This document shows, piece by piece, positions 1,937 through 64,000 of a stretch of DNA of 64,000 bases. The stretch lies in IMG/VR virus record IMGVR_UViG_2897358383_000002; one strand, 5' to 3'. Position 1 is the first letter of the stretch. Each line of letters starts with the position of its first letter. The notes beneath the pieces were generated by a model. It ran no database searches. It was not told the origin of the DNA and saw only the letters and a program-made list of their open reading frames with translations. The position numbers and the translations under genes are program-made. Source of the DNA: a virus (Duplodnaviria > Heunggongvirae > Uroviricota > Caudoviricetes).

Positions 1937-3189
<1,253 letters not shown>

Positions 3190-6592: not shown

Positions 6593-6621
6593 TATCTTCA
6601 GCTCCTGTGATTGATTGGATA

Positions 6622-6652: not shown

Positions 6653-6679
6653 TCACTTTCTCTGTTTTAAAAATCAATA

Positions 6680-6693
6680 TTTATTAGAGCAAT
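6680..6693 (-). promoter_or_regulatory. Late-promoter-like box (reverse-strand sense TTGCTCTAATAAAT, then ATTGATTTTTAAAAC)
   Basis: One of at least six copies of the same 14-mer in the window, each followed by an AT-rich -10-like element. Points leftward at the 28-aa peptide gene. Confidence 0.4.
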
Positions 6694-10226: not shown

Positions 10227-10834
10227 TCTTTAAGAGTCATCTGCGGAATACCTCCCATTTTCCCGCATGAAACAACGTCAATCTGTTCACGCGCAGACTG
10301 GAATAACAAAGGCAGGTGACTTAGATTTTTTGGCGTGCCGCCGGAGTGAACGCGTGGTTCTTGTGTAGCGTCAACGCCCACCAGGGCGACATGTTTGAAT
10401 CCGATATGGAAAGCCAGGTTCAGAGCGCCATATGCACTATTGCCGCTGGCAATTTCATTCTCATCTTCGCAAAGTCCGAAATGTGCGGACCAGCGCCACG
10501 CCCACCACTCGGGAGAATTCATATTTTTTGGCTCCATGCCACGTTCAGCCACACGACGGAAGCACAGAACGCCGTCTCTGACTTCACGTTCTTTAACATC
10601 GGGTAGTGCCATGCAATAACAAACACCACGGCGACGGCGGCCACGACCAACGCGCCGCATATTGTCTGCCGATGGATCAAGTGTGAAAAAATAAGAAGCG
10701 CGGTTCAGCCAGTCGATGGCCCCATTGACCGCTATAATCGGCACTCCGCGCGGCGCAACAAAGTTTGCGGCGCTTGGGCCACTGCCGACGATAATAACGC
10801 GATCACTGCCTCTAAATTTATTCTTGGGAAACAT
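10208..10834 (-). CDS. Hypothetical protein, paralog B of a GSGPS-motif pair
   Basis: 208 aa. IVGSGPS...IAVNGA N-terminal motif shared with the next gene. Confidence 0.6.
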
Positions 10835-11361
10835 TGAATTGCACTGCTCCTACTTGCATTCAAAATATGTAAATCTGCGTGTTTTTTGCGGGTATCCAGG
10901 AACTGCTGTTGCCATTTTGAAATAGACACCTGCGTTGGATTCCGTAGTGCTTGAGGGTGCGCGCCATGCCAATGAAGGCCGTTTTGCAGAGAACAGTCAT
11001 AGCCGACTAATACCACTACTTCAGCCCCTGATTCAGCAGCCAGACTGATAGCCTGCGCGCCGCTATTTACCCCTTCCGCCGGTCCACAATATCGCCTGTA
11101 CTCCAACGAAAATGATTTCGCCGCCGCCAGGTTGGCTGTCACTTTGCGGAATCTCCCTCCCGGTATGGTGGATCCGTATTGCTTCCACCATGACAAATCA
11201 CCGGCGTATAAGGCATAAATGTCATCGAACATCTGCCAGGAATTGTTAACCGCGATGATTGAACAGCCAGTTTTTTCTATAGCAGCACAGTCCTCACGAG
11301 TGAGTGACGGACCGCTACCGACACAAAAAACAGTCCTAGTCGCCCTGGGTGGTATGTTCAT
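10732..11361 (-). CDS. Hypothetical protein, paralog A of a GSGPS-motif pair
   Basis: Start moved to the internal ATG at 11361 (MNIPPRATRTVFCVGSGPS...). The 3' end overlaps the start of paralog B by about 100 nt. Confidence 0.55.
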   Translation of the reverse strand: MNIPPRATRTVFCVGSGPSLTREDCAAIEKTGCSIIAVNNSWQMFDDIYALYAGDLSWWKQYGSTIPGGRFRKVTANLAAAKSFSLEYRRYCGPAEGVNSGAQAISLAAESGAEVVVLVGYDCSLQNGLHWHGAHPQALRNPTQVSISKWQQQFLDTRKKHADLHILNASRSSAIQCFPRINLEAVIALLSSAVAQAPQTLLRRAECRL

Positions 11362-11557: not shown

Positions 11558-12136
11558 TCACGTAGTGTACAACCACTTGTCACCGTTCAATACATGCTCA
11601 ATAGCCTCACCCTTTTTAAGGCTCATGTATTCCAGGATGGCGGTTATCGCTTGTTCTGCACCATACGCAAGAACGACGTAGTAACCTTCCTCTCTAAGCC
11701 TGCGCATCCAGGCGATCTGCTCATGCGTCGGGGCTTTACCATTTGGTTCTTTAAGCTCAATTCGCATGCCGTGATAAATACCGCATGCTTTATCGAGACT
11801 CATGTCCGGATAACCTTTTTTCTGCCCTTCAGCCTTCATTTTCCCGGCGGTTGCTTTTGAACGTTTCCCTCCGTTAGGCGTTGCATGCAACAGCTCATAG
11901 ATGTCAGGGTGCTTGCGTTCGAAGTAATCAAAAATGAAAACCTGCTCGAAGTGCTCGCAATTTCCGTCGCGCAGGTCTGGGGTCTTTGCCAGTGCTGCAA
12001 GTGCCTTCGCATGTGGAGAAACTTCTGTTACCGGCGCAAGCGATAAGAATGGATCCTTTTTGGTTTTTGGCCTGGACTGCCCCTTATTTCTACGCTCACT
12101 AAAAGCCTGAAACTCTTCCTCAGTAAAGCGCAACAT
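11558..12136 (-). CDS. VRR-NUC domain nuclease-like protein
   Basis: 192 aa. C-terminal GYPDMSL...GMRIELKEPNGKAPTHEQIAWMRRLREEGYYVVLAYG fits the VRR-NUC (PD-(D/E)xK) pattern. Confidence 0.65.
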   Translation of the reverse strand: MLRFTEEEFQAFSERRNKGQSRPKTKKDPFLSLAPVTEVSPHAKALAALAKTPDLRDGNCEHFEQVFIFDYFERKHPDIYELLHATPNGGKRSKATAGKMKAEGQKKGYPDMSLDKACGIYHGMRIELKEPNGKAPTHEQIAWMRRLREEGYYVVLAYGAEQAITAILEYMSLKKGEAIEHVLNGDKWLYTT

Positions 12137-49700: not shown

Positions 49701-50428
49701 ATGGAGTGAGGGGACCACTGCCTGATAACGCTGTTATCGATCAGTCTACTGGCCTGGCGTTTACCCCTGGTGATAGCCCGTTTGAGAAAGGCGGTCTGGT
49801 AGACAAAATTGGCAATGCTGTTGGCGTTAACGATCTGGTCAACAAATTCATGAATGGCCGGGGTATGCGTCGGGAAGTCGTTCAGGGAACGCTCGAAGAA
49901 CGTGCACGAGGGAAGGGGACCGCAACAGCAGCTGGCAATGTGTATGTTGATACTCCGATGCCAGTTGAAGAGGCGCGTCCGGTGGCCAGCAACTCAAGTT
50001 ACTTTGACCAACTCGGCGCACAAATGGGGATTGATGGACTATTTGATAAACTCCGCAACTCGCCGGGGATGCGGAAAAATAATGCGCCTGAACCAGCCTC
50101 CACGTCCCAGGTGACGACTGCCGCCAACGATTTGCAGCAACCAACCGGTCGTATGCAGATAGACGGACAGGTTATTAGTGACCTTGGCGGCTCCGGTGCC
50201 AAGCCGACAATGCAGTTGGCTGATAATACCGTTTCACTTGATGGTGAAACGAAGCGGCTGTTTGCGCAGATGACCTCATTGCTTGCCAGGATTGAAGAGC
50301 ACACTAAAGACTCGGCGAAAGGCCAGGGAACTGTCGTAAAGGTCAGCACGCCTCAACCGGGCGTTATGCGCACGGTGCCACTGTCAATTGATGATCCGTT
50401 GATGAATGACTACGCGAGAGTTGATTGA
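46733..50428 (+). CDS. sit: Tail tape-measure / injection protein with lytic transglycosylase (SLT) domain (P1 Sit-like)
   Basis: 1231 aa. Gly-rich membrane-like segment and SLT motif AIAATESGGNPYAKSQTGALGMFQFT. Confidence 0.8.
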   Translation: MERKNANIDDVIRTVETASAKELEELAGIREAVEDLKGERVATVDPVSRSVSALNRTIENSRPDFVANAPSVDPIVDAMKRLNLGDVSRIREDKVTNREQQVAPTAHNPPNRRREAITEDVKAQRLETVKLARDLRGGRVATVDPVSRSVSALNRTIENSRPDFVANAPSVDPIVDAMKRLNLGDVSRVVQEGIAQEEQQAKSTTPKGKKRRRKAISEDIKAQRTEAAEHAREMFDQKGGAQKSQNQRDARGRFIGKSGSKAAAEDVRAERAEKARRKEDDERLNAESGLLKKLSKVAEGIGNPSETRAVDALGYAVAGPLWAAGKELGGISKEVGGSLNGARKSIADVIRGNDDNSRRKGFFRRKSQNSADVVQVNTQKRTVQELQEQTSEIKEGNDKILSALDQIAKNTGKKKGGLLSKLFSLLGKGAGGIASLIFGRGVLKKVGSMALGALGIKKVASLLGFGGKKAAAKEAGELATRGAGKLATKGLGKLGVKALAKGALRAIPLVGTVAGGIYDAVTGWNDTEAQRRTFGLKDGEDPSFQQKAAYTLANVLDMGGLVSGISSAIGGVLKSLGFEDIGNMLQSFSTESIAQAIDSGITNLETYISNLGDTISTTFSDYTAKIGDAISAWFSDTTKNLNEKLDAIKNFFTVDNLKQVFSDAIDSAIDFIKNPGKYIKEAGSNLWSAAKELSGEVADAAVQSTPVAWVASKLVNKADAKEVTPELKTPAKESQEDNAPKTEYTPKKANIVTRVVNASLDTAKDSNKTVKETANQIINANAVETGNSALQKIDKAIGQNSSSSSSLNTTGTRNDIQKAADTYNNGNLDVKVGSLGAEGKANLDKLAPYFAELENKYGLPEGTLYAIAATESGGNPYAKSQTGALGMFQFTGIAREETGLAEGESFDPVKSAEAAALLMSKYLKQANGDLNEAITAYNAGFGTINKWKKGTGDLSKENREYAIKVNTHRARYLGGEIYTPGAGAQGGAQYGVRGPLPDNAVIDQSTGLAFTPGDSPFEKGGLVDKIGNAVGVNDLVNKFMNGRGMRREVVQGTLEERARGKGTATAAGNVYVDTPMPVEEARPVASNSSYFDQLGAQMGIDGLFDKLRNSPGMRKNNAPEPASTSQVTTAANDLQQPTGRMQIDGQVISDLGGSGAKPTMQLADNTVSLDGETKRLFAQMTSLLARIEEHTKDSAKGQGTVVKVSTPQPGVMRTVPLSIDDPLMNDYARVD
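46846..47294 (+). repeat. Internal duplication in the tape-measure gene (two 150-bp near-identical segments, 300 bp apart)
   Basis: RVATVDPVSRSVSALNRTIENSRPDFVANAPSVDPIVDAMKRLNLGDVSR is encoded twice. Confidence 0.7.
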
Positions 50429-50784
50429 TGGCCAACAATAATGAAATTGATCCTTTACTGACGCTGGAGTTATCCGGCGTAAAAACGTATGAGTCCCAGG
50501 AGGAGGCCTGGGGCGCTCGTTTATATGAGTGGCTAAACACTTATCAGGGTGAGGTATACGGAGATCCGTCATGGGGCAATGTTTTACCGCAGTTTAAACA
50601 CGAACCGACCAACTTGTCGCATGTTCAAATTGCGGTTGAGGCAATGCTGTTGCAAAAACTGACGGTAGATTTACCTGACATACCGATTTCTGGCTTGTCA
50701 GTAGCCGAGGGAGATGCTTTTGATAAGTTGAAAATATCCATTCGTATCAGGGATATAACTATCACACAGGACGTGGTGCTATGA
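50425..50784 (+). CDS. Hypothetical structural protein (119 aa)
   Basis: Start overlaps the tape-measure stop (ATGA). Confidence 0.55.
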   Translation: MMANNNEIDPLLTLELSGVKTYESQEEAWGARLYEWLNTYQGEVYGDPSWGNVLPQFKHEPTNLSHVQIAVEAMLLQKLTVDLPDIPISGLSVAEGDAFDKLKISIRIRDITITQDVVL

Positions 50785-52214
50785 GTAAAACAACACCGAC
50801 TAAAGACAGTATTCGTGCAGAGTTTGAAGAGCTTGTCGAGAAAGATTCATTCTGGTCGAAGTTTGTCGGCTCTCAATTTGTCTCGATGCTGACATTGTTT
50901 ATTACCCAGATTGTCTACAGGTGCTTTCAGTATGCCGATGCGGCGCTGGCTGAAGGCTTTATATCGACCGCGACGCGGCGTTCCTCTATCCTGGCAGCGG
51001 CAGAAACGAATAGTTACGTTGGTACCAAGCCAACACCGTCATCGGGGATGATTGAGATCACCGCCACAAGTGAAGATGCCCCAGCGGTAATCCCCAAAAA
51101 TATGCCTTTAATATCTGACGACCAGTACCCTTACATGACTATGGATGTATGCAGGTTGGTTGACGGCACCGGTACGGTAGAAGTGGCACAGTTGGAAATC
51201 CAGGAGGTGACATATACCGTTACGGCAGCCAAAGAATTTCTGGAAGTCGTGTTATCAAAGGCTCTCACTGCTGTCTGCTATAAGCTGGAAGTATTCGTGA
51301 CGACCGATGGTAAGACCACGCAGTGGTCTTCCAGCACTATGTTCCGGTTAGCCGGTAGTAAAAGCCAGGTCTACGTTGAGTTTTATAAGCCATCCGAGCA
51401 GTTGGGGGTTCGATTCGGTGATGGGCTAATTGGGCAAATACCGCCAGAAGGCTCGACCATTACACTTAAGGTATGGTGCACCAACGGAGATATAACCCTG
51501 GTTGCTGGCCAAAACCTGACGCCTGTCGATTCTGCGGCTAATTTAGCTAATTTGATTTCAGTTAAGACAACGACACCCATAACCGCAGGTACCGATGCCG
51601 AAACAACGGAGATCACACGTAATCGTGCACAATATTACCTTGCCTATGATGATCAGGTCGTATGGGGCGGGGACTATACGTATTTTTTGGTGCGTAACAT
51701 CCCGGGACTGTCCTGGGTAAAGGCATGGGGCGAAGGCCAGCAAGAGAAATTAGATGGTGCTTATAATGTTCGGAATATCAATAAGATATTTATTTCAGGA
51801 TGGCATCCAAACAAAAGCCAGTCAGAGCTTGAAGAAGTGATCCTGGCTGCCTTTAAGAAGGTGCCGAATGAGTTGAACAAGAAATTCTCGTATAAAGAGG
51901 TCAGAAAACTCCCCTTTAAGATCACTATCACTGGGCGGATATCGGCAAGCCTGACCATTGAGAACGTGACTGATGAGCTGAAGTCGGCACTGGAAACAAA
52001 ATTTGGGCGTGACTCAACTTTCTTTGATCCGAACCGTGTCGGCAAGTACATCCTAATCAAGAAAAAAGACGTTTGGGCATTTATCGAAACGCTGGGTTAT
52101 TTCCGCGACTTTTATCTGGAATTTGTCGAGTGGAATGAGTCCAACGGCTTTTACGATTTCGTTTATCTGGATACAGAAAACTCCACCTTTAATATTTCGT
52201 ATGAGGAGGAGTGA
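50781..52214 (+). CDS. Hypothetical structural protein, possible baseplate component (477 aa)
   Basis: Overlapping start and stop with neighbours in the tail operon. Confidence 0.55.
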   Translation: MSKTTPTKDSIRAEFEELVEKDSFWSKFVGSQFVSMLTLFITQIVYRCFQYADAALAEGFISTATRRSSILAAAETNSYVGTKPTPSSGMIEITATSEDAPAVIPKNMPLISDDQYPYMTMDVCRLVDGTGTVEVAQLEIQEVTYTVTAAKEFLEVVLSKALTAVCYKLEVFVTTDGKTTQWSSSTMFRLAGSKSQVYVEFYKPSEQLGVRFGDGLIGQIPPEGSTITLKVWCTNGDITLVAGQNLTPVDSAANLANLISVKTTTPITAGTDAETTEITRNRAQYYLAYDDQVVWGGDYTYFLVRNIPGLSWVKAWGEGQQEKLDGAYNVRNINKIFISGWHPNKSQSELEEVILAAFKKVPNELNKKFSYKEVRKLPFKITITGRISASLTIENVTDELKSALETKFGRDSTFFDPNRVGKYILIKKKDVWAFIETLGYFRDFYLEFVEWNESNGFYDFVYLDTENSTFNISYEEE

Positions 52215-53050
52215 TGCAGCGTTCCTGGTTTAATAACCGGCTTACATCAGCTAAGCAAAAGTCATTACTTTATAAATCATTGGCTGATTTGGTTCAGTCA
52301 ATGATGGACACCTTTGTTGACCCATGGTTGGAGCGAATTACCAACCGGAAGTCTATTTTCTCCATGAGCAAGGAGGATCTGGAGACTAGGACAAATGAAC
52401 TTGGCCAGTTTTTTACTATCAGAACGTCGAATTCATCTTCCGTTCCGATGTTGTTACAACAGCGGTTTGATGAGATCCATTTTAAGGGTACTGAACGCCC
52501 TATAAACCAGACAATTTATCGCGAATTTAACGGTATATCGGTTTTATGGGATCCAATATATGCTCCGGTGGACTTTGAACGTCATCCCTATGGCACGGTC
52601 CTGATTCCAGAAAGCACACTGGAAACCACCGGCGGCACATTCGGCGAGATGTTTCTGACTTCCAGAGGAATGATCAGTATTCCCATAAACGACCTGGCCC
52701 GGACAATGGGTATTACTGGAACGATAGATCAGTCCGCAATTACAGAAGAAATTCTCAGAAAGTTTAATCAGTTCGTAAAGCCTCTACTGCCACTGCATAT
52801 AGTGTTTGATGGGCTTACGCTCTATTTGTCGGTTGTTGTAAATGAACAGGCCGACATGATCACTTTGAATGAGATTTCTGATACCGAAAAAGCATTCTGC
52901 TGGTTTGAAACTTCGGATACAACTTCGCTTACTGAAGTTACGTCGATTAACGCCCCGATCACTGCAACGCCGGGCGGCACTATTGTGAAAGCAACGCCTA
53001 CGTTTGATCGCACCCGCGCAGATGATTTGCTGTTGGATAGCGATGCGTGA
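52211..53050 (+). CDS. Hypothetical structural protein (279 aa)
   Basis: GAGGAGG SD. Overlaps the previous stop. Confidence 0.55.
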   Translation: MMQRSWFNNRLTSAKQKSLLYKSLADLVQSMMDTFVDPWLERITNRKSIFSMSKEDLETRTNELGQFFTIRTSNSSSVPMLLQQRFDEIHFKGTERPINQTIYREFNGISVLWDPIYAPVDFERHPYGTVLIPESTLETTGGTFGEMFLTSRGMISIPINDLARTMGITGTIDQSAITEEILRKFNQFVKPLLPLHIVFDGLTLYLSVVVNEQADMITLNEISDTEKAFCWFETSDTTSLTEVTSINAPITATPGGTIVKATPTFDRTRADDLLLDSDA

Positions 53051-53128
53051 CAATCACCCCGTCCGCAGGGCGGGGTGACAAGTTACTTATCTTACAATGA
53101 GGCTTCACAACATTGATTAGGGAAAATC

Positions 53129-53563
53129 ATGTCTGACGTCTCAACAAACCTCTATAAGAGTCAGTTGTTGGACTATTACTATCAGCGGCGCGCTGAATCG
53201 TCCATTAACAAAGGCTCTCGATTTTTAATCAGCAAGGCCGTTTTCGGTACCAGTTCACTGGTTACTAAGAAAGGAGATGGCACTTATGAGATTGGAGAAC
53301 TGCCAAAGGCTTTCGATCTGGCAGAACTGACCAGTCAATTTTGCACCATCAACCTCGTCCCAACCTACTCAGGCGGGATAATTACTGTCCGAATGGACCT
53401 TGATCAAAGTCAGTTGCAGGAAGGGAAAAACTACCCATTCAACACTCTGGTTGTTCTGGATAACGAGAATAAGCCAATCGCCATTATTTGTGTCCAGGAA
53501 GACTCGCTGTATGTGGGCAAAACATATACCGCAGTTATGGCCATAAACTCGACTACAGCATAA
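53129..53563 (+). CDS. Tail-fibre-associated protein (R-like), 144 aa
   Basis: Immediately precedes the tail fibre gene. An identical copy lies inverted at 61901-62335. Confidence 0.55.
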   Translation: MSDVSTNLYKSQLLDYYYQRRAESSINKGSRFLISKAVFGTSSLVTKKGDGTYEIGELPKAFDLAELTSQFCTINLVPTYSGGIITVRMDLDQSQLQEGKNYPFNTLVVLDNENKPIAIICVQEDSLYVGKTYTAVMAINSTTA

Positions 53564-53574
53564 GGATATGCTTG

Positions 53575-56499
53575 ATGAATGACGTTACAGTTGTTACATC
53601 GGTTACTTACCCATCACCCGAGTCGTTGGCTCTGGTGGCTGATGTGCAATACCACGAACCATATCTGTCAGCCGCTCTAAACCGAAAATTCAGGGGAATT
53701 GTTGACCCGGGATTTTATGCTGGTTTCTTGCCTAAGCCTGGCGGTGGGATGAACCTGTTAATCACCTCAGTGGATGGAGATAAAACCGCTGGCGCGGCGT
53801 CAGTGGATATTGGTGAATTCTACCAGGTAACTATTCAGCATCGTAAGGATATCTCTCTTGCACTTAACGCAGGCAAGAAATATGCAATTGTGCTGAAGGG
53901 AAGATACCTTCTTGGAGAAGATACCTATCAGGTGAATACCGCGTCACATATTCATGCAGCTGAATTTGTTGCCAGAACCTATACCGATTCATATCAGTTA
54001 GGTGATGGGGAACTGCTGGTTTGTACGGTGAATATCCCTGCTGGCGTATCTACCATTACTCAAGAGATGATTGATACATCCGAGCGTATCAACCGCACGA
54101 TCGGCATTGATATTTCAGACTCTGTAACCAGTACCAGAAGTGATGTTGCTGCGAGTTCGCTGGCAGTTAAAAAAGCCTACGATCTGGCGAAAAGCAAGTA
54201 TACGGCGCAGGATGCAAGCACAACGCAAAAGGGATTAGTTCAGCTCAGTAGTGCCACTAACAGTACGTCCGAAGTGCTGGCCGCCACACCGAAAGCTGTC
54301 AAGGCTGCATATGACCTGGCTAACGGGAAGTATACAGCCCAGGATGCAACCACGACACAAAAAGGGATAGTTCAGCTCAGTAGCGACACCAACAGCACTT
54401 CTGAAACATTAGCTGCAACGCCAAAAGCGGTTAAAGCTGCATACGATCTAGCAGCCGGAAAGGCACCATCCAGTCATACACATCCCTGGAATCAGATCAC
54501 TGGTGTGCCAACAGCTTCATTGACAGCGAAAGGCATCACTCAGCTCAGTAGTGCCACTAACAGCACGTCTGAAGTGCTGGCCGCCACACCGAAAGCTGTC
54601 AAGGCTGCATATGACCTGGCTAACGGGAAGTATACAGCCCAGGATGCAACCACGACACAAAAAGGGATAGTTCAGCTCAGTAGCGACACCAACAGCACTT
54701 CTGAAACATTAGCTGCAACGCCAAAAGCGGTTAAAGCTGCATACGATCTAGCAGCCGGAAAGGCACCATCCAGTCATACACATCCCTGGAATCAGATCAC
54801 TGGTGTGCCAACAGCTTCATTGACAGCGAAAGGCATCACTCAGCTCAGTAGTGCCACTAACAGCACGTCTGAAGTGCTGGCCGCCACACCGAAAGCTGTC
54901 AAGGCTGCATATGACCTGGCTAACGGGAAGTATACAGCCCAGGATGCAACCACGACACAAAAAGGGATAGTTCAGCTCAGTAGCGACACCAACAGCACTT
55001 CTGAAACATTAGCTGCAACGCCAAAAGCGGTTAAAGCTGCATACGATCTAGCAGCCGAAAAAGCACCATCCAGTCATACACATCCCTGGAATCAGATTAC
55101 TGGTGTGCCAACAGCTTCATTGACAGCGAAAGGCATCACTCAGCTCAGTAGTGCCACTAACAGCACGTCTGAAGTGCTGGCCGCCACACCGAAAGCTGTC
55201 AAGGCTGCATATGACCTGGCTAACGGGAAGTATACAGCCCAGGATGCAACCACGACACAAAAAGGGATAGTTCAGCTCAGTAGCGACACCAACAGCACTT
55301 CTGAAACATTAGCTGCAACGCCAAAAGCGGTTAAAGCTGCATACGATCTAGCAGCCGGAAAGGCACCATCCAGTCATACACATCCCTGGAATCAGATCAC
55401 TGGTGTGCCAACAGCTTCATTGACAGCGAAAGGCATCACTCAGCTCAGTAGTGCCACTAACAGCACGTCTGAAGTGCTGGCCGCCACACCGAAAGCTGTC
55501 AAGGCTGCATATGACCTGGCTAACGGGAAGTATACAGCCCAGGATGCAACCACGACACAAAAAGGGATAGTTCAGCTCAGTAGCGACACCAACAGCACTT
55601 CTGAAACATTAGCTGCAACGCCAAAAGCAGTTAAAGCTGCATACGATCTAGCAGCCGGAAAGGCACCATCCAGTCATACACATCCCTGGAATCAGATCAC
55701 TGGTGTGCCAACAGCTTCATTGACAGCGAAAGGCATCACTCAGCTCAGTAGTGCCACTAACAGCACGTCTGAAGTGCTGGCCGCTACACCGAAAGCTGTC
55801 AAGGCTGCATATGATTTGGCTAATGGAAAGCAAGCGGCAGACGCTACGCTCACTGCTCTAGCGGCACTAGCTACCGCAGCAGATAAACTCCCTTATTTCA
55901 CAGGGGTTGATCGTGCCGCGTTAACTGCACTGACAAGTGTTGGACGTGCAATTCTTAGTAAGCCCAGTATTCAGAGCGTTCTTAATTACCTTGGTTTAGG
56001 GGAAGGCTCGGCGCTGCCCGTTGGTGTACCTGTTCCATGGCCCTCAGCCACACCACCAACGGGGTGGCTGAAATGTAACGGAGCAGCATTTTCTTCTGAA
56101 AAGTACCCAAATCTGGCAAAGGTTTACCCAACGTTAAAATTACCTGATTTACGCGGTGAGTTTATCCGTGGTTGGGATGATTCGAGAGGGATTGATACAG
56201 GGCGTTCATTGCTAAGTGGTCAGACTGCAACATTTATTCGTACAGCTTTGCAGGATTATTACGGTGTCGATCTGACTACTAATGTCAAAGTAGGTATCGC
56301 TTATGCTACTGCTGATTCTGTTATAACTGTTGGAAACCCTGCTAATCCTAAAGCAGGAGATAATAGCGATTATGTTCCAGCATCATCAGATAACTCCATA
56401 ACAGGCACTCAAAGGACGGCAGAGGATAATTTTACCGGGGCATGGATATCAATGCGCCCCCGCAACGTTGCTTTTAATTACATCGTAAGGGCAGCATGA
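53575..56499 (+). CDS. Tail fibre protein (S-like) with repetitive shaft and exchangeable C-terminal domain
   Basis: ATG 53575 with AAGGA SD (track ORF starts at 53488 inside the R-like gene). Repeats ATPKAVKAAYDLA. C-terminus GVPVPWPSATPPTGWLKCNGAAFS...LPDLRGEFIRGWDD is the conserved fibre-tip module. Confidence 0.85.
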   Translation: MNDVTVVTSVTYPSPESLALVADVQYHEPYLSAALNRKFRGIVDPGFYAGFLPKPGGGMNLLITSVDGDKTAGAASVDIGEFYQVTIQHRKDISLALNAGKKYAIVLKGRYLLGEDTYQVNTASHIHAAEFVARTYTDSYQLGDGELLVCTVNIPAGVSTITQEMIDTSERINRTIGIDISDSVTSTRSDVAASSLAVKKAYDLAKSKYTAQDASTTQKGLVQLSSATNSTSEVLAATPKAVKAAYDLANGKYTAQDATTTQKGIVQLSSDTNSTSETLAATPKAVKAAYDLAAGKAPSSHTHPWNQITGVPTASLTAKGITQLSSATNSTSEVLAATPKAVKAAYDLANGKYTAQDATTTQKGIVQLSSDTNSTSETLAATPKAVKAAYDLAAGKAPSSHTHPWNQITGVPTASLTAKGITQLSSATNSTSEVLAATPKAVKAAYDLANGKYTAQDATTTQKGIVQLSSDTNSTSETLAATPKAVKAAYDLAAEKAPSSHTHPWNQITGVPTASLTAKGITQLSSATNSTSEVLAATPKAVKAAYDLANGKYTAQDATTTQKGIVQLSSDTNSTSETLAATPKAVKAAYDLAAGKAPSSHTHPWNQITGVPTASLTAKGITQLSSATNSTSEVLAATPKAVKAAYDLANGKYTAQDATTTQKGIVQLSSDTNSTSETLAATPKAVKAAYDLAAGKAPSSHTHPWNQITGVPTASLTAKGITQLSSATNSTSEVLAATPKAVKAAYDLANGKQAADATLTALAALATAADKLPYFTGVDRAALTALTSVGRAILSKPSIQSVLNYLGLGEGSALPVGVPVPWPSATPPTGWLKCNGAAFSSEKYPNLAKVYPTLKLPDLRGEFIRGWDDSRGIDTGRSLLSGQTATFIRTALQDYYGVDLTTNVKVGIAYATADSVITVGNPANPKAGDNSDYVPASSDNSITGTQRTAEDNFTGAWISMRPRNVAFNYIVRAA
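54301..55800 (+). repeat. Five near-perfect 300-bp tandem repeats inside the tail fibre gene
   Basis: Units begin aaggctgcatatgacctggctaacgggaag at 54301, 54601, 54901, 55201 and 55501. Only a few SNPs between copies. Confidence 0.9.
55984..56008 (+). other. Putative recombination crossover site at the fibre constant/variable junction
   Basis: TTAATTACCTTGGTTTAGGGGAAGG. The same TTGGTTTRGGGGAAGG core precedes every cassette. Confidence 0.5.
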
Positions 56500-56520
56500 A
56501 AACGTTGGTTTGGGGGAAGG
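56500..56520 (+). other. Putative crossover site before cassette 2
   Basis: AAACGTTGGTTTGGGGGAAGG immediately after the fibre stop. Confidence 0.5.
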
Positions 56521-56938
56521 CTCTGCACTGCCTGTTGGTGTGCCCGTTCCGTGGCCCTTAGAAACACCACCAACGGGCTGGCTAAAATGTAACGGAGCAG
56601 CATTTTCTTCTGAAATGTATCCCAAACTGGCAAAAGCCTACCCCACCAATAAATTACCGGATTTACGCGGTGAATTTATCCGTGGCTGGGATGATGGGCG
56701 CGGGATTGATGCGGGACGTACCCTGCTTTCAGGGCAGGATGGTACAAGTTTTTCTCATTACGGAGGTAATTTCGACATTGGGTCTGGTCATTCAATCAAT
56801 AACTATGACCAAATTGTTTCTAACCAACCAGGATTTTCCCGTTTTTCATTTGCAGGGCCTTCACGAGGTGATGGGGTTAATTATGTAACCATTCGTCCTC
56901 GTAACATTGCGTTTAATTATATCGTAAGGGCGGCATGA
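56510..56938 (+). other. Promoterless alternative tail-fibre C-terminal cassette 2
   Basis: Encodes GEGSALPVGVPVPWPLETPPTGWLKCNGAAFS...NYIVRAA. The track's M is a TTG inside the crossover site. Confidence 0.6.
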
Positions 56939-56961
56939 AAACGTTGGTTTGGGGGAAGGCT
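56939..56961 (+). other. Putative crossover site before cassette 3
   Basis: AAACGTTGGTTTGGGGGAAGG. Confidence 0.5.
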
Positions 56962-57407
56962 CTGCACTGCCCGTTGGCGTGCCCGTTCCGTGGCCATCAG
57001 CCACACCTCCAACGGGGTGGCTGAAATGCAATGGCGCAGCATTTTCTTCTGAAAAGTACCCAAATCTGGCAAAGGTTTACCCAACGTTAAAATTACCTGA
57101 TTTACGCGGTGAGTTTATCCGTGGTTGGGATGATGGGCGAGGTGTGGATGCGGGAAGGGTCATCTTAAGCATACAGGGGTGGTTAACAGGAAGTCATTAT
57201 CATAATATTCGGTCATGGGACGCGTGGGATAACACGGTATTGGTGCCAAATGACAGAGGGGGGGATAGCCTGTTGTCGACAGATAACGCCGTCCAAGAAG
57301 GAGCGATTAATGGTAAATTTACCAGTCAATACAGAACGGAGTTATCTGGGGGGAATGAAACCCGCCCACGTAACATTGCCTTCAATTATATTGTGAGAGC
57401 AGCATAA
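56949..57407 (+). other. Promoterless alternative tail-fibre C-terminal cassette 3
   Basis: Same conserved N-terminal 60 aa as the fibre tip. Unique middle. Ends NYIVRAA. Confidence 0.6.
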
Positions 57408-58018
57408 TGGATAATGCGATATTAAATAGCGAACTTATAGCCATACAGGCAGGAAACATTATCGTTTATAACTATGATGGTGGTAATCGGGAATATATTT
57501 CTGCATCAACTGAATATCTTGCTGTTGGCGTTGGTATTCCGGCACATTCTTGTTTGGATGCTCCAGGCTCACATAAAGCAGGTTATGCGATTCTCCGTTC
57601 AGAGGATTTAAGTTCATGGGAGTATGTGCCAGATCATCGTGGCGAAACTGTCTATAGCATTGACACAGGGAATCCCGAAGAAATCACGGTGTTGGGTGAC
57701 TATCCGGAAAATACAACCACTATCGCCCCGCTAACACCATACGACAAATGGGATGGAGAGAAATGGGTGGTTGATACTGAGGCTCAACATAGTGCAGCTG
57801 TAGAGGCAGCAGAAACAAAACGTCAGTCATTGATTGATACTGCGATGGATTCCATTAGTCTGATTCAGTTGAAATTACGGGCTGGACGGAAGTTGACGCA
57901 GGCAGAAACCACGCAGCTTAACTCCGTGCTAGATTATATAGACGAGCTGAACGCGATGGATTTAACCACGGCACCAGATCTCAACTGGCCTGAAAAACAA
58001 CTTTCTACAGCCAGTTGA
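57407..58018 (+). CDS. Tail fibre assembly chaperone (Tfa / U-like)
   Basis: 203 aa. C-terminal DLNWPEKQ is typical of Tfa proteins. Confidence 0.7.
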   Translation: MDNAILNSELIAIQAGNIIVYNYDGGNREYISASTEYLAVGVGIPAHSCLDAPGSHKAGYAILRSEDLSSWEYVPDHRGETVYSIDTGNPEEITVLGDYPENTTTIAPLTPYDKWDGEKWVVDTEAQHSAAVEAAETKRQSLIDTAMDSISLIQLKLRAGRKLTQAETTQLNSVLDYIDELNAMDLTTAPDLNWPEKQLSTAS

Positions 58019-58023
58019 TATAA

Positions 58024-58521
58024 TTAATCCGCCCTCACAATATAATTAAATGCAATATTACGAGGGCGGGTTTCTAAGCCAGCAGTACCTAAATTAGCTA
58101 CGGACTGTTTATATGTTTTAAAAGTTCCATAATTAGGGGCTGGCAATCCTGCATCGCTTGTGTTCCCCCATCTGATAACTCCCGTATTACCACTAGTAGC
58201 CCATGCCTCGTCAAAGTAGAAATTAATTGAGCTGTCAGTTGCTACGGTTGATTTTGACGGTAATCCGTGAGCATGATCCTCCGTTGCATATCCTTGCTCG
58301 CTTAAAATAGAGCGACCTGGATCAATCCCGCGCCCGTCATCCCAGCCACGAATGAACTCACCACGTAAATCAGGCAATTTATTTGTCGGGTAAGCCTTTG
58401 CCAGATTTGGGTACTTTTCAGAAGAAAATGCTGCACCATTGCATTTCAGCCACCCCGTTGGAGGTGTGGCTGAAGGCCACGGAACAGGGACACCAACAGG
58501 TAATGCAGAGCCTTCTCCCAA
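58024..58521 (-). other. Alternative tail-fibre C-terminal cassette 4 (reverse orientation)
   Basis: Reverse-strand GEGSALPVGVPVPWPSATPPTGWLKCNGAAFS...unique...NYIVRAD, preceded by the crossover core (58509-58533). Confidence 0.6.
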
Positions 58522-58623
58522 ACCAACGTTTTTATGCCGCCCTTACGATGTAATTAAATGCGATATTTCGTGGACGGGTTACTCCCCATATTACCTCCCT
58601 CGTGAATGAAGTGTCGGTGATGA

Positions 58624-58968
58624 TCAAATCCTCTGTATTGTCATCAGATCCATCCTTGGTGTATGTTTTTTTGAAATGTCCCAGCTCCCATTCATCTTTT
58701 GTGTCGTAACCATCATGCTACAAAATATGTCGATGCTTTCAGCATTCCTGTCTGAATGCCAATAAAGCACGTCCCGCATCCACCCCGCGCCCATCATCCC
58801 AGCCGGAATAAATTCTCCCGTAATCCGGTAATTTATTGGTGGGTAGCTTTGCCAGATTTGGGTACTTTCAGAAGAAAATGCTGCACCATTGCATTTCAGC
58901 CACCCCGTTGGAGGTGTGCTGAGGGCCACGGAACGGGACGCCAACAGGCATGCAGAGCCTTCCCCCAA
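58624..58968 (-). pseudogene. Alternative tail-fibre cassette 5, disrupted by several 1-bp indels
   Basis: Recognisable conserved start (TPPTGWLKCNGAAFSSE), then frame loss. Crossover-like core at 58956-58980. Confidence 0.5.
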
Positions 58969-58995
58969 ACCAACGTTTTTTATGCTGCCCTTACG

Positions 58996-61889
58996 ATGTA
59001 ATTAAAAGCAACGTTGCGGGGGCGCATTGATATCCATGCCCCGGTAAAAATTATCCTCTGCCGTCCTTTGAGTGCCTGTTATGGAGTTCTGATGATGGAA
59101 CATAATCGCTATTATCTCCTGCTTTAGGATTAGCAGGGTTTCCAACAGTTATAACAGAATCAGCAGTAGCATAAGCGATACCTACTTTGACATTAGTAGT
59201 CAGATCGACACCGTAATAATCCTGCAAAGCTGTACGAATAAATGTTGCAGTCTGACCACTTAGCAATGAACGCCCTGTATCAATCCCTCTCGAATCATCC
59301 CAACCACGGATAAACTCACCGCGTAAATCAGGTAATTTTAACGTTGGGTAAACCTTTGCCAGATTTGGGTACTTTTCAGAAGAAAATGCTGCGCCGTTGC
59401 ATTTCAGCCACCCCGTTGGAGGTGTGGCTGAATGGGCCTGGAACAGGGTACGCCAAACGGGCCAGTGCAGAGCCTTCCCAAACCAAGGTAATTAAGAACG
59501 CTCTGAATACTGGGCTTACTAAGAATTGCACGTCCAACACTTGTCAGTGCAGTTAACGCACCCCTGTGAAATAAGGGAGTTTATCTGCTGCGGTAGCTAG
59601 TGCCGCTAGAGCAGTGAGCGTAGCGTCTGCCGCTTGCTTTCCATTAGCCAAATCATATGCCAGCCTTGACAGCTTTCGGTGTAGCGGCCAGCACTTCAGA
59701 CGTGCTGTTAGTGGCACTACTGAGCTGAGTGATGCCTTTCGCTGTCAATGAAGCTGTTGGCACACCAGTGATCTGATTCCAGGGATGTGTATGACTGGAT
59801 GGTGCCTTTCCGGCTGCTAGATCGTATGCAGCTTTAACTGCTTTTGGCGTTGCAGCTAATGTTTCAGAAGTGCTGTTGGTGTCGCTACTGAGCTGAACTA
59901 TCCCTTTTTGTGTCGTGGTTGCATCCTGGGCTGTATACTTCCCGTTAGCCAGGTCATATGCAGCCTTGACAGCTTTCGGTGTGGCGGCCAGCACTTCAGA
60001 CGTGCTGTTAGTGGCACTACTGAGCTGAGTGATGCCTTTCGCTGTCAATGAAGCTGTTGGCACACCAGTGATCTGATTCCAGGGATGTGTATGACTGGAT
60101 GGTGCCTTTCCGGCTGCTAGATCGTATGCAGCTTTAACCGCTTTTGGCGTTGCAGCTAATGTTTCAGAAGTGCTGTTGGTGTCGCTACTGAGCTGAACTA
60201 TCCCTTTTTGTGTCGTGGTTGCATCCTGGGCTGTATACTTCCCGTTAGCCAGGTCATATGCAGCCTTGACAGCTTTCGGTGTGGCGGCCAGCACTTCAGA
60301 CGTGCTGTTAGTGGCACTACTGAGCTGAGTGATGCCTTTCGCTGTCAATGAAGCTGTTGGCACACCAGTAATCTGATTCCAGGGATGTGTATGACTGGAT
60401 GGTGCTTTTTCGGCTGCTAGATCGTATGCAGCTTTAACCGCTTTTGGCGTTGCAGCTAATGTTTCAGAAGTGCTGTTGGTGTCGCTACTGAGCTGAACTA
60501 TCCCTTTTTGTGTCGTGGTTGCATCCTGGGCTGTATACTTCCCGTTAGCCAGGTCATATGCAGCCTTGACAGCTTTCGTGTGGCGGCCAGCACTTCAGAC
60601 GTGCTGTTAGTGGCACTACTGAGCTGAGTGATGCCTTTCGCTGTCAATGAAGCTGTTGGCACACCAGTGATCTGATTCCAGGGATGTGTATGACTGATGG
60701 TGCCTTTCCGGCTGCTAGATCGTATGCAGCTTTAACCGCTTTTGGCGTTGCAGCTAATGTTTCAGAAGTGCTGTTGGTGTCGCTACTGAGCTGAACTATC
60801 CCTTTTTGTGTCGTGGTTGCATCCTGGGCTGTATACTTCCCGTTAGCCAGGTCATATGCAGCCTTGACAGCTTTTCGTGTGGCGGCCAGCACTTCAGACG
60901 TGCTGTTAGTGGCACTCTGAGCTGAGTGATGCCTTTCGCTGTCAATGAAGCTGTTGGCACACCAGTGATCTGATTCCAGGGATGTGTATGACTGGATGGT
61001 GCCTTTCCGGCTGCTAGATCGTATGCAGCTTTAACCGCTTTGGCGTTGCAGCTAATGTTTCAGAAGTGCTGTTGGTGTCGCTACTGAGCTGAACTATCCC
61101 TTTTTGTGTCGTGGTTGCATCCTGGGCTGTATACTTCCCGTTAGCCAGGTCATATGCAGCCTTGACAGCTTTCGGTGTGGCGGCCAGCACTTCGGACGTA
61201 CTGTTAGTGGCACTACTGAGCTGAACTAATCCCTTTTGCGTTGTGCTTGCATCCTGCGCCGTATACTTGCTTTTCGCCAGATCGTAGGCTTTTTTAACTG
61301 CCAGCGAACTCGCAGCAACATCACTTCTGGTACTGGTTACAGAGTCTGAAATATCAATGCCGATCGTGCGGTTGATACGCTCGGATGTATCAATCATCTC
61401 TTGAGTAATGGTAGATACGCCAGCAGGGATATTCACCGTACAAACCAGCAGTTCCCCATCACCTAACTGATATGAATCGGTATAGGTTCTGGCAACAAAT
61501 TCAGCTGCATGAATATGTGACGCGGTATTCACCTGATAGGTATCTTCTCCAAGAAGGTATCTTCCCTTCAGCACAATTGCATATTTCTTGCCTGCGTTAA
61601 GTGCAAGAGAGATATCCTTACGATGCTGAATAGTTACCTGGTAGAATTCACCAATATCCACTGACGCCGCGCCAGCGGTTTTATCTCCATCCACTGAGGT
61701 GATTAACAGGTTCATCCCACCGCCAGGCTTAGGCAAGAAACCAGCATAAAATCCCGGGTCAACAATTCCCCTGAATTTTCGGTTTAGAGCGGCTGACAGA
61801 TATGGTTCGTGGTATTGCACATCAGCCACCAGAGCCAACGACTCGGGTGATGGGTAAGTAACCGATGTAACAACTGTAACGTCATTCAT
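58996..61889 (-). pseudogene. Inverted second copy of the tail fibre gene, fragmented by frameshifts
   Basis: Track ORFs 61014-61976, 60644-60892, 59653-60363 and 59051-59266 together reproduce the 53575-56499 fibre protein, with 1-bp indels between fragments. Confidence 0.6.
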
Positions 61890-61900
61890 CAAGCATATCC

Positions 61901-62335
61901 TTATGCTGTAGTCGAGTTTATGGCCATAACTGCGGTATATGTTTTGCCCACATACAGCGAGTCTTCCTGGACACAAATAATGGCGATTGGCTTATTCTCG
62001 TTATCCAGAACAACCAGAGTGTTGAATGGGTAGTTTTTCCCTTCCTGCAACTGACTTTGATCAAGGTCCATTCGGACAGTAATTATCCCGCCTGAGTAGG
62101 TTGGGACGAGGTTGATGGTGCAAAATTGACTGGTCAGTTCTGCCAGATCGAAAGCCTTTGGCAGTTCTCCAATCTCATAAGTGCCATCTCCTTTCTTAGT
62201 AACCAGTGAACTGGTACCGAAAACGGCCTTGCTGATTAAAAATCGAGAGCCTTTGTTAATGGACGATTCAGCGCGCCGCTGATAGTAATAGTCCAACAAC
62301 TGACTCTTATAGAGGTTTGTTGAGACGTCAGACAT
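61901..62335 (-). CDS. R-like tail-fibre-associated protein, inverted identical copy
   Basis: 144-aa product identical to that of 53129-53563. Confidence 0.5.
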   Translation of the reverse strand: MSDVSTNLYKSQLLDYYYQRRAESSINKGSRFLISKAVFGTSSLVTKKGDGTYEIGELPKAFDLAELTSQFCTINLVPTYSGGIITVRMDLDQSQLQEGKNYPFNTLVVLDNENKPIAIICVQEDSLYVGKTYTAVMAINSTTA

Positions 62336-64000
62336 GATTTTCCCTAATCAATGTTGTGAAGCCTCATTGTAAGATAAGTAACTTGTCACCCCGCCCTGCG
62401 GACGGGGTGATTGTCACGCATCGCTATCCAACAGCAAATCATCTGCGCGGTGCGATCAAACGTAGGTTGCTTTCACAATAGTGCCGCCCGGCGTTGCAGT
62501 GATCGGGGCGTTAATCGACGTAACTTCAGTAAGCGAAGTTGTATCCGAAGTTTCAAACCAGCAGAATGCTTTTTCGGTATCAGAAATCTCATTCAAAGTG
62601 ATCATGTCGGCCTGTTCATTTACAACAACCGACAAATAGAGCGTAAGCCCATCAAACACTATATGCAGTGGCAGTAGAGGCTTTACGAACTGATTAAACT
62701 TTCTGAGAATTTCTTCTGTAATTGCGGACTGATCTATCGTTCCAGTAATACCCATTGTCCGGGCCAGGTCGTTTATGGGAATACTGATCATTCCTCTGGA
62801 AGTCAGAAACATCTCGCCGAATGTGCCGCCGGTGGTTTCCAGTGTGCTTTCTGGAATCAGGACCGTGCCATAGGGATGACGTTCAAAGTCCACCGGAGCA
62901 TATATTGGATCCCATAAAACCGATATACCGTTAAATTCGCGATAAATTGTCTGGTTTATAGGGCGTTCAGTACCCTTAAAATGGATCTCATCAAACCGCT
63001 GTTGTAACAACATCGGAACGGAAGATGAATTCGACGTTTGATAGTAAAAAACTGGCCAAGTTCATTTGTCCTAGTCTCCAGATCCTCCTTGCTCATGGAA
63101 AAATAGACTTCCGGTTGGTAATTCGCTCCAACCATGGGTCAACAAAGGTGTCCATCATTGACTGAACCAAATCAGCCAATGAAAGTAATGACTTTTGCTT
63201 AGCTGATGTAAGCCGGTTATTAAACCAGGAACGCTGCATCACTCCTCCTCATACGAAATATTAAAGGTGGAGTTTTCTGTATCCAGATAAACGAAATCGT
63301 AAAAGCCGTTGGACTCATTCCACTCGACAATTCCAGATAAAAGTCGCGGAAATAACCCAGCGTTTTCGATAAATGCCCAAACGTCTTTCTTGATTAGGAT
63401 GTACTTGCCGACACGGTTCGGATCAAAGAAAGTTGAGTCACGCCCAAATTTTGTTTCCAGTGCCGACTTCAGCTCATCAGTCACGTTCTCAATGGTCAGG
63501 CTTGCCGATATCCGCCCAGTGATAGTGATCTTAAAGGGGAGTTTTCTGACCTCTTTATACGAGAATTTCTTGTTCAACTCATTCGGCACCTTCTTAAAGG
63601 CAGCCAGGATCACTTCTTCAAGCTCTGACTGGCTTTTGTTTGGATGCCATCCTGAAATAAATATCTTATTGATATTCCGAACAACATTATAAGCACCATC
63701 TAATTTCTCTTGCTGGCCTTCGCCCCATGCCTTTACCCAGGACAGTCCCGGATGTTACGCACCAAAAAATACGTATAGTCCCCGCCCCATACGACCTGAT
63801 CATCATAGGCAAAGGTAATATTGTGCACGATTACGTGTGATCTCCGTTGTTTCGGCATCGGTACCTGCGGTTATGGGTGTCGTTGTCTTAACTGAAATCA
63901 AATTAGCTAAATTAGCCGCAGAATCGACAGGCGTCAGGTTTTGGCCAGCAACCAGGGTTATATCTCCGTTGGTGCACCATACCTTAAGTGTAATGGTCGA

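Follow-up and report, generated by a model that had tools for sequence, protein, structure and literature searches.

The window analysed here, the whole stretch of DNA with a length of 64 kb, contains a phage tail-fibre gene followed by alternative 3′ cassettes in both orientations. The question raised by this locus is what kind of DNA-inversion system it represents, and where its recombinase is encoded. The locus very probably belongs to a P1-like phage-plasmid and is a multiple DNA-inversion system of Min (p15B) type; the right end of the window has probably been misassembled. As a system it is already known, and is ordinary; the Min multiple DNA-inversion system of plasmid p15B of E. coli 15T- (min region, X62121) was reportedly described by Sandmeier et al. 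(1990, PNAS 87:1109; 1991, NAR 19:5831; 1992, J Bacteriol 174:3936).

The fibre gene, its cassettes and the crossover sites

The coordinates of the features are collected in Table 1. The P1 late-promoter-like motif at the left of the locus was deduced by visual inspection of this site and of two sites upstream of the lysis genes of the closest finished relative (the locus, designated L090, of the E. coli phage-plasmid p50579417_1). The motif has a single exact match in trustworthy sequence, and the other exact match (62366–62384) lies only in the inverted duplicate at the right end of the window. The product of the R-like gene that follows has no Pfam match. The constant part of the fibre gene S (Sc) includes five tandem 300-nt repeats (54240–55739), and is 100% identical to nucleotides 4653–7068 of the p50579417_1 locus.

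Downstream of Sc and its fused cassette A, the promoterless cassettes B and C lie in the same orientation, followed by a single tail-fibre assembly gene (tfa) and then by cassettes in the reverse orientation. The initial annotation had described this layout with two reverse cassettes; the forward pair and the one tfa stand as described, but the reverse cassettes number three (D′, X′ and A′). Every cassette is in frame from its site, reading GLGEGS... As had been noted, the cassettes share a conserved start. The first 60 codons of A, B, C and D have amino acid identities of 90–100% and nucleotide identities of 84–93%, and all finish in RPRN(I/V)AFNYIVRA(A/D). The window holds five distinct cassettes and one tfa, in keeping with the earlier expectation of five or more alternative fibre tips. 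Cassette N is absent from the window.

Table 1. Positions and strands of the features of the fibre locus within the window.
Feature	Position	Strand	Remarks
P1 late-promoter-like motif AAGTTACTT-N4-TACAAT	53080–53098	+	Upstream of the R–S operon
R-like gene, 144 aa	53129–53563	+	Precedes the fibre gene; annotated in relatives as hypothetical or phage tail protein
Fibre gene S	53575–56499	+	3′ end is cassette A
Sc, constant part of S	53575–55990	+	Pfam Phage_fiber_2 x12
mix1, 26-bp crossover site TTCTTAATTACC TT GGTTTAGGGGAA	55979–56004	+	Sc/cassette junction
Cassette A	55993–56499	+	At present fused in frame to Sc; Collar domain and variable tip
mix2, AGCATGAAAACG TT GGTTTGGGGGAA	56493–56518	+	
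Cassette B, silent	56507–56938	+	Collar domain
mix3, GGCATGAAAACG TT GGTTTGGGGGAA	56932–56957	+	
Cassette C, silent	56946–57407	+	Stop codon overlaps start of tfa (ATAATG)
tfa, single tail-fibre assembly (chaperone) gene, 203 aa	57407–58018	+	Pfam Caudo_TAP, E = 3e-30
Cassette D′, silent, intact	58024–58524	-	Tail-to-tail with tfa; stop codons 5 nt apart
mix4′, GGCATAAAAACG TT GGTTTGGGAGAA	58513–58538	-	
Cassette X′ (E′ of the initial annotation)	58532–58971	-	Same cassette as X of relatives; riddled with indels from 58581
mix5′, GCATAAAAAACG TT GGTTTGGGGGAA	58960–58985	-	Low-quality sequence
A′, second copy of expressed cassette A	about 58980–59484	-	Indels; mosaic 5′ end
mix6′, TTCTTAATTACC TT GGTTTGGGAA, 2-nt deletion	59475–59498	-	Joins A′ to inverted copy of Sc
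Error-ridden reverse-complement copy of 51453–55978 (Sc, R, baseplate genes)	59499–64000	-	All ORFs frameshifted; outside the locus

The core TTGGTTTRGGGGAAGG is present in five copies at ≤2 mismatches, against 0.04 expected. The six sites of the window conform to the Din-family 26-bp pattern, all having a central TT and a right half-site GGTTT(A/G)GG(G/A)GAA. The sequence of mix1 matches tabulated Din-family sites (PMC4134206); the EC958 Phi2 sites TCCTCAATTACCTT GGTTTAGGAGAA and GAGAGATAAACGTT GGTTTGGGGGAA are available for comparison from the same source, together with a Din consensus. At least six crossover-like sites had been claimed, and the sixth is indeed present with its 2-nt deletion, but only four (three forward and one reverse) are trustworthy, the other two lying in low-quality sequence. 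Moreover mix6′ joins A′ to the inverted copy of Sc, and so cannot belong to one invertible locus. Trustworthy sequence is limited to sites 1–4 and cassettes A–D.

Relatives, inversion isomers and the invertase

Nucleotides 1–55990 of the window are collinear with the finished plasmid p50579417_1 (NZ_CP033882.1, 33078–89067) and 100.0% identical to it. The A, B and C-tfa-D′ modules each match the p50579417_1 locus at 100.000% with 0 gaps, and it is their order and orientation that differ. Cassette A of the window is identical to a cassette A that is silent in p50579417_1, cassette B is identical to the one fused to Sc there, and the C-tfa-D′ module is inverted. The order in the window is Sc.A B C TFA D′ and that in p50579417_1 is Sc.B A D TFA′ C′ X′ N′ MIN, with the breakpoints of the rearrangement falling exactly at the site cores. 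Since the modules are identical yet permuted and inverted at crossover sites, the window is, judged from its sequence, another inversion isomer of the known six-cassette (A, B, C, D, X, N) Min-type system. Six near-identical records (the window, L090, L091, L089, L003 and L084) have six different arrangements. The comparison shows inversion to be recent or ongoing in this plasmid lineage, because near-identical plasmids occupy different isomers.

Among the relatives, intact S genes are fused to A, B, C, D, H, I, N and X, which contradicts the possibility, raised at the outset, that the cassettes might be out of frame in every isoform. The number of sites per relative ranges from 3 to 17 (six in p50579417_1), and the cassette sets vary. 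By enumeration 240 isomers can be reached with this module layout, equal to the figure of 240 isomers that is reportedly given for p15B Min. Plasmid records matching this region number 230. A search of IMG/VR with Tfa returned mostly unrelated prophages at ~80% identity and contigs in which the locus is broken, and the useful ones were L006, L007 and L010 only.

A single chaperone gene set between cassettes of both orientations had been considered unusual. It is the rule in this family, the one tfa lying within an invariant mix-C-tfa-D′-mix′ module in 15 of 15 relatives. The gene is 99.5–100% identical across all of them, and cassette C lies directly upstream of it in every relative except L084, where the reading frame of C is broken. 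In plasmid pMCR_SCKP-LL83 (L004) the gene is annotated as tfaE-like.

A 190-aa recombinase is encoded in 14 of the 15 relatives, 100% identical and always 67 nt beyond the last site (10597–11169 in the p50579417_1 locus); the fifteenth reaches its contig end before the far side of the array. The protein comprises the Pfam domains Resolvase and HTH_7, and matches solved DNA-invertase chains (4m6f/3uj3) with E = 4e-92, its closest solved relative being a 193-aa DNA-invertase. In Gin, Cin and Hin systems a Fis-dependent recombinational enhancer sits within the 5′ part of the invertase gene. A tblastn search of the 64-kb window with the invertase of the relatives as query gave no match. The earlier observation that no invertase gene lies in the window is thus correct, but the absence is not puzzling, given that the finished plasmid of identical backbone carries the gene just past its last site. 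With neither a recombinase nor cassette N in the window, membership of the Min type leans on the relatives. Identity between the region of the window and pMCR_SCKP-LL83, which has the same cassette families, is 93.7% over 67% of the length of the region, and a segment of pMCR_SCKP-LL83 is reported to be 99% identical, with 92% coverage, to the min region of p15B (PMC5786510).

The initial annotation had likened the locus to both Min and the R64 shufflon (Rci, sfx, pilV), rather than to the switches of P1 or Mu. The likeness to the multiple inversions of Min of p15B is upheld, but that to R64 extends only to its logic. In both cases the 3′ end of one gene is shuffled by inversions among many sites, with many cassettes, sites in both orientations and one constant 5′ part. 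In a true shufflon of that kind an Rci-like tyrosine recombinase would act on sfx-like repeats to change a conjugative pilus adhesin. Here the sites are different, fitting the 26-bp pattern of serine invertases, the enzyme encoded beside the array in all complete relatives is of the serine type and close to the solved DNA-invertases, and the target is a Phage_fiber_2/Collar tail fibre and not PilV. A shufflon of R64 type is scarcely credible.

In the mechanism proposed for the Min-type system, Sc ends at a 26-bp crossover site, and each promoterless 3′ cassette, made up of a Collar domain and a variable tip that binds the receptor, opens with a site of the same type with a central TT. Min, a serine invertase like Gin, Cin and Pin, would recombine pairs of inverted sites. 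This would flip and shuffle the cassettes, such that any one of A, B, C, D, X and N could become fused in frame to Sc. The swap of tip would probably change the host range, as suggested by the literature on p15B and P1.

The right end of the window

The section from 58769 to 64000 is the reverse complement of 51453–56719, with 98.4% identity and 41 indel events; this had been overlooked in the initial annotation. There are no indels relative to p50579417_1 in 57066–58580, and then 30 events in 58581–58976. Comparison of X′ with the intact X of L090, L091, L089 and L003 gives 40 gap columns and 4 mismatches in 487 columns, and that of A′ with A of p50579417_1 gives 14 gap columns and 8 mismatches in 521 columns. 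Beyond 59499 the alignment with p50579417_1 has 36 gap columns and 2 mismatches in 4540 columns, against 0 and 0 for the left copy. With L001 as the reference, gaps number 1 over 6497 nt in the left copy and 45 over 4764 nt in the right. An exact 57-mer taken across the damaged junction has no match in the genome and viral contig collections. The final 5.4 kb is most probably not the true continuation of the fibre region but an inverted copy of it, full of errors, the pattern of which points to an artefact. The invertase is missing from the window because the quality of the sequence collapses from 58581, making the right end unreliable; the inverted arm, with its many errors, stands where the gene is expected. 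Relative to A, the first 100 nt at the 5′ end of A′ has ~7 substitutions, every one of which matches other cassettes. A pure copy with random errors is thus insufficient to account for A′, while a mixed consensus or localized conversion would fit.

These same data bear on whether the array might be a fossil, in which the invertase has been lost and the cassette order fixed, the right arm being the decayed remnant of an ancient inverted duplication. Such an origin would agree with the lack of an invertase within 64 kb, and with the disruption of X′, A′ and all the right-arm ORFs. However, indels nearly free of substitutions, as found beyond 59499, are the signature of sequencing error and not of decay. 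Furthermore, min is present in a finished plasmid to which the remainder of the window is 100% identical, and near-identical plasmids are found as different isomers. We consider a fossil array to be very improbable indeed. Evolutionary decay of a real duplication is rejected as the source of the right arm, because indels so far outnumber substitutions.

The palindrome has arms that stop at mix2 and mix5′, with a non-palindromic loop of 2.5 kb between them. A random fold-back (template/complement) read was rejected as the cause of the palindrome on account of this loop bounded by crossover sites. The palindrome might nevertheless be a real molecule that was badly sequenced, either a head-to-head (inverted) dimer or a snap-back genome. 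In this case the invertase would have joined mix2 of one plasmid copy to the inverted mix5′ of another, giving Sc-A-[loop]-A′-Sc′ in vivo. An intermolecular event predicts just what is seen, namely arms that end exactly at two crossover sites and a loop that is the segment those sites invert, and a random fold-back read would have no such loop. Yet the quality of the two arms is grossly unequal (0 against 36 gap columns when compared with the same finished plasmid), when a true repeat would have equal coverage and polishing in both. Din-family invertases, as known from the topology of Gin, Hin and Cin, are strongly biased towards inverted sites within one molecule. In addition, a plain mis-join of two ordinary isomers yields the same structure, an artefact of a kind that is documented (PMC4134206). 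A real palindrome therefore seems improbable.

Misassembly of a Min-type system would account for the right end as follows. The isomer in the window is Sc.A-B-C-tfa-D′-X′, with the expected continuation N′-mix′-min. From about 58581 the sequence resembles a poorly corrected long read, and it leaves the invertible segment through the wrong flank (X′-A′-Sc′...). The resulting order is the reverse complement of a sister isomer Sc.A-X-D-tfa′-C′-B′, one inversion away. By breadth-first search Sc.A X D U′ C′ B′ N′ lies one inversion from Sc.A B C U D′ X′ N′, and a loop bounded by two crossover sites is expected if reads of two isomers one inversion apart were joined. The wrong exit is probably an artefact of assembly or reading in a mixed population of isomers. 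X′ is the worst stretch, though it should be well polished if Sc.A-B-C-tfa-D′-X′-N′ were the majority isomer, and so the sample must have held a more complex mixture than this two-isomer sketch.

Long-read assemblies of DNA with mixed tail-fibre inversion isomers are known to contain contigs that are spurious and duplications that are artefacts (Forde et al. 2014, PMC4134206). There too an invertible segment that occurred in both orientations within a single preparation of DNA gave extra or duplicated sequence bounded by crossover sites, but the alternative allele formed separate contigs, whereas here it is joined to the main contig as an inverted arm. Some caution is required, as a long-read assembly can turn back on itself where an invertible region exists as a mixture of isomers. 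This duplicates the fibre gene in inverted form and hides the recombinase, so that a reader of the sequence alone may infer a system that is exotic or devoid of a recombinase.

Comparison with other switches and the orientation of tfa

The closest parallel is Min of p15B. Both are carried on P1-related phage-plasmids of IncY type, with a constant fibre part and alternative 3′ parts, a serine invertase adjoining the array, one tfa and six sites (as counted in L090). They differ in that the window contains a partial array that lacks min.

The C-segment of P1 (Cin) and the G-segment of Mu (Gin) are similar in that Sc is joined to alternative Sv sequences by a Din-family serine invertase acting at 26-bp sites, and the invertase gene adjoins the segment; the phage backbone here is the same as that of P1. 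Those switches have exactly two sites, two states and two Sv–U sets, with two chaperone genes (U and U′), one for each orientation. This two-state layout is not what is found here, where there are six or more sites, five distinct cassettes with short Collar-type tips and a single tfa. The switches of the defective prophage e14 (Pin/P-segment) and of prophages of the EC958 Phi2 type (PMC4134206) are two-site switches on chromosomal prophages, and differ in this respect. The sites of EC958 Phi2 are near-identical to the present ones, and its type, as here, has a constant part of Phage_fiber_2 repeats and an invertible part with the Collar domain.

Tail-fibre switches of Min type have been recognized since 1990 and occur in hundreds of P1-like phage-plasmids sequenced to date, and there is nothing biologically new in the present example. 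The expression of the one chaperone gene, by contrast, raises a question for the family as a whole, since tfa is antisense to S in about half of the deposited records. It is antisense to the sole recognisable late promoter (upstream of R) in exactly half of the 240 isomers, and always so when the expressed tip is D. A scan for a sigma-70 promoter belonging to tfa gave 8 hits, no excess over the 6.6 ± 2.6 of shuffled sequences, and the late-promoter-like motif has no match within 55990–59500, neither result bearing on a non-canonical promoter. The Min switch may double as an on/off switch for fibre assembly, or Collar-type tips may fold without Tfa, a reading that we regard as improbable; neither seems to be addressed in the literature within reach. 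If the on/off reading were true, half of the induced cells would release fibre-defective particles.

Organization of the tail-fibre locus

The window is a P1-like phage-plasmid, in which tail-fibre gene S is followed by alternative 3′ cassettes (a prime denotes reverse orientation). The S protein comprises 12 Phage_fiber_2 repeats and then a C-terminal Collar domain, with five exact 300-nt tandem units among the repeats of the constant part of the gene (Sc). The length of S ranges from 2019 to 2925 nt across relatives, suggesting that repeats are frequently gained or lost and that fibre length varies accordingly. Cassette A forms the final 169 codons of S, and the start of the assembly gene tfa overlaps the stop codon of cassette C. 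Upstream, the Sit-like ORF contains an internal duplication of ~100 aa, with the motif RVATVDPVSRSVSALNRTIENSRPDF... present twice; it occurs in relatives in forms of 1130 or 1231 aa.

Positions of features in the window
Feature	Position	Remarks
Type I restriction-modification operon (hsdM, hsdS, hsdR)	374-6427	In place of P1's res-mod; also at that position in pMCR_SCKP-LL83
Sit-like tape-measure/transglycosylase gene	46733-50428	Upstream of S; 1231 aa
Baseplate genes		Upstream of S
Small R-like gene	53129-53563	Upstream of S
Gene S	53575-56499	974 aa
Sc	53575-55990	Constant part of S
Tandem 300-nt units	54240-55739	Within Sc
Cassette B	56507-56938	Orientation of S; no start signals of its own
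Cassette C	56946-57407	Orientation of S; no start signals of its own
tfa	57407-58018	Sole copy; Caudo_TAP, E = 3e-30
Cassette D	58024-58524	Reverse; 5 nt past tfa stop

All cassettes share an opening of 60 codons (GLGEGSALPVGVPVPWP...LPDLRGEFIRG; 90-100% amino acid and 84-93% nucleotide identity) and the C-terminal ending RPRN(I/V)AFNYIVRA(A/D). Each is preceded by a 26-bp site, xxxxxxAAAACG TT GGTTT(A/G)GG(G/A)GAA, that at the Sc junction being TTCTTAATTACC TT GGTTTAGGGGAA. The initial annotation of a fibre gene and cassettes with 60 shared starting codons, each behind a common core, is borne out by the ORFs and by comparison of the sites and cassettes; its 16-nt core has five copies at ≤2 mismatches, against 0.04 expected by chance. 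They differ little from the crossover sites listed for the invertase of E. coli EC958 prophage Phi2, and conform to the consensus for Mu/P1/e14/p15B given in the same paper (PMC4134206). The first ~100 nt past each crossover core (55991-56110 in the window, and the equivalents in relatives) are mosaic between cassettes and records, a pattern that localized conversion or homologous exchange between the conserved 5′ portions would produce; cassette A, for example, has different 5′ ends in L089, L003, L086 (all related loci) and the window.

The inverted duplication at the right end

Matches to the region come from 230 plasmid records, nearly all of them non-mobilizable plasmids of E. coli with sizes of ~95-100 kb. 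Nucleotides 1-55990 are 100.0% identical to and collinear with 33078-89067 of plasmid p50579417_1 (NZ_CP033882.1, E. coli 50579417; L090) in single alignments. Judged by this identity, the window represents a further copy, or an isomer, of that already finished phage-plasmid.

In a self-comparison, 58769-64000 matches 51453-56719 in reverse complement at 98.4% identity. The copies differ by 41 indel events and 21 mismatches, nearly all of the latter falling where different cassettes are aligned. The ORFs of the right copy (fibre, R and baseplate genes) are all frameshifted; those of the left are intact. L090 served as the reference for deciding which copy is aberrant. Segments 49000-53574, Sc, A, B and C-tfa-D′ are each 100.000% identical to it without a gap. 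X′, the cassette after site mix4′, has 40 gap columns and 4 mismatches in 487 columns; the next cassette, A′, has 14 and 8 in 521, the inverted Sc (59491-61900) 15 and 2 in 2424, and 61901-64000 has 21 and 0 in 2116. Compared with another relative (L001), there are no indels in 57066-58580 and then 30 indel events within 58581-58976. The errors are mostly deletions, several of them 5-10 nt long in non-repetitive context. The indel to substitution ratio of roughly 18:1 is the signature of what would be uncorrected long-read sequence, rather than divergence. Of the two reverse-orientation cassettes originally described, D′ therefore stands as clean sequence and the second lies inside the unreliable part. 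The sixth site as then placed (59475-59498, 2 nt missing) also falls there, joining the second copy of A to the inverted constant region, and is not upheld.

The palindrome has arms that stop at mix2 (after A) and mix5′ (between X′ and A′), and its loop is [B C tfa D′ X′]. Reversed, the right part reads Sc.A-X-D-tfa′-C′-B′, an ordinary isomer exactly one inversion from that on the left; its Sc.A-X junction is shared by two sister plasmids, L089 and L003. A read of this isomer, joined to the contig of the other via their common 2.5-kb segment, would give precisely Sc-A-[segment]-A′-Sc′, and we infer that the fold-back is an artefactual join of two isomers. Assemblies from PacBio data that incorporate an invertible tail-fibre segment in its alternative orientations, with the attendant risk of artefactual duplication, have been described (PMC4134206). 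A random template/complement fold-back read does not fit, as it would contain no such non-palindromic loop between crossover sites. A genuine head-to-head dimer arising by intermolecular recombination at mix2 and mix5′ would have the identical structure, but is very improbable: both of its arms should show equal sequence quality, and this family of invertases is known to act almost exclusively between sites of one molecule. The simplest join of two isomers would have X′ well covered, yet this is the stretch of worst quality, and the first 100 nt of A′ carry ~7 substitutions relative to A that match other cassettes. Both features suggest that the mixture of isomers was more complex, or that the consensus is a mixed one.

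Invertase, isomers and relatives

Sites, cassettes, tfa and recombinase were annotated in the window and 15 related loci. A 190-aa recombinase with 100% identical protein sequence is encoded in 14 of the 15, the contig of the other (L010) ending before the far end of the array. In every case the gene (min) begins 67 nt from the outermost site and reads outward from the array. The protein has Resolvase and HTH_7 domains. Among solved structures it is closest, over its full length, to the 193-aa DNA-invertase chains 4m6f/3uj3 (E = 4e-92), which we take to be Gin of Mu. While the window indeed holds no invertase gene, the array is very probably not one without a recombinase, for the finished plasmid of 100% identity carries the gene; the corrupted right end explains why it is missing here. 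Beyond X′ one would expect N′ and the last site, with min following after 67 nt.

Arrangements of the array, Sc forward
Locus	Arrangement
Window	Sc.A B C TFA D′ X′ [A′ Sc′]
L090	Sc.B A D TFA′ C′ X′ N′ MIN
L091	Sc.X B A B D TFA′ C′ N′ MIN
L089	Sc.A X B C TFA D′ psiA′ N′ MIN
L003	Sc.A X C TFA D′ B′ B′ MIN
L084	Sc.D TFA′ psiC′ B′ A′ X′ N′ MIN

The invertase would recombine one forward and one reverse site, flipping whatever lies between. With a site at the 5′ end of all cassettes and one at each end of the module [mix-C-tfa-D′-mix′], repeated inversions would shuffle both order and orientation. Enumeration gives 240 reachable isomers, with Sc fused to A, B, X or N in 48 each and to C or D in 24 each. 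This matches the number for the Min system of p15B, for which the work of Sandmeier et al. (1990) reportedly gave 240. The trustworthy part of the window is the isomer Sc.A-B-C-tfa-D′-X′, which three inversions would convert to the L090 arrangement and a single one to that of L084. Modules of 100% identity are permuted and inverted between the window and L090 with site cores as their boundaries, providing comparative evidence that the sites are used.

More distant relatives have 3 to 17 sites and additional cassette types G, H, I, J and K. L086 (NZ_CP135665.1, 5997-14959) has 17 cassettes, including four X and three J; other finished plasmids have two B (L003 and L091) or two A (L085). These duplications may be real amplifications or an isomer-mixing assembly artefact like that of the window. 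Of the 79 contigs retrieved from IMG/VR with Tfa (L005-L083), about half stop ~1.1 kb or less from the tfa match; invertible regions of this type seem to interrupt short-read assembly.

With six sites, six cassettes in the lineage (A, B, C, D, X and N) and a serine invertase in relatives, the original proposal of p15B-like multiple inversion rather than two-state switching holds. The system works like Min of p15B and is very probably Min-type: the defining features tested were all found, except an invertase gene within the window itself. Six sites and a single tfa rule out a two-state Cin/Gin switch, while an R64-type shufflon is ruled out by the serine type of the recombinase and the tail-fibre target. 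Switching is stated to change host range in the P1/p15B literature.

Provision of the chaperone Tfa

The window and all 15 relatives have a single tfa, invariably flanked by C and, tail-to-tail, by D; among these relatives is pMCR_SCKP-LL83, with a segment reported to share 99% identity with the min region of p15B (PMC5786510). One chaperone serving cassettes in both orientations, initially considered unusual, is thus the family norm. Among the 240 isomers tfa is co-oriented with S in 120 and antisense in 120, and is never co-oriented when D is expressed. In the deposited relatives (L001-L004, L006, L010, L084-L091) it is co-oriented in six and antisense in eight (seven versus eight with the window); in three of the antisense records Sc is fused to D.

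The motif AAGTTACTT-N4-TAnnAT, which looks like the P1 late-promoter signature, precedes the R-S operon (53080-53098) and the lysis genes (L090, about 11572-11600 and 11895-11915). It has 14 matches in the window at ≤2 mismatches, against 5.2 expected. Exact matches occur only at 53080 and in its inverted duplicate, with no copy inside the invertible segment, where no enrichment of sigma-70-like promoters was found either. The kind of system, its family and even the exact plasmid backbone are already in databases and the literature; any novelty could lie only in how antisense isomers are supplied with Tfa.
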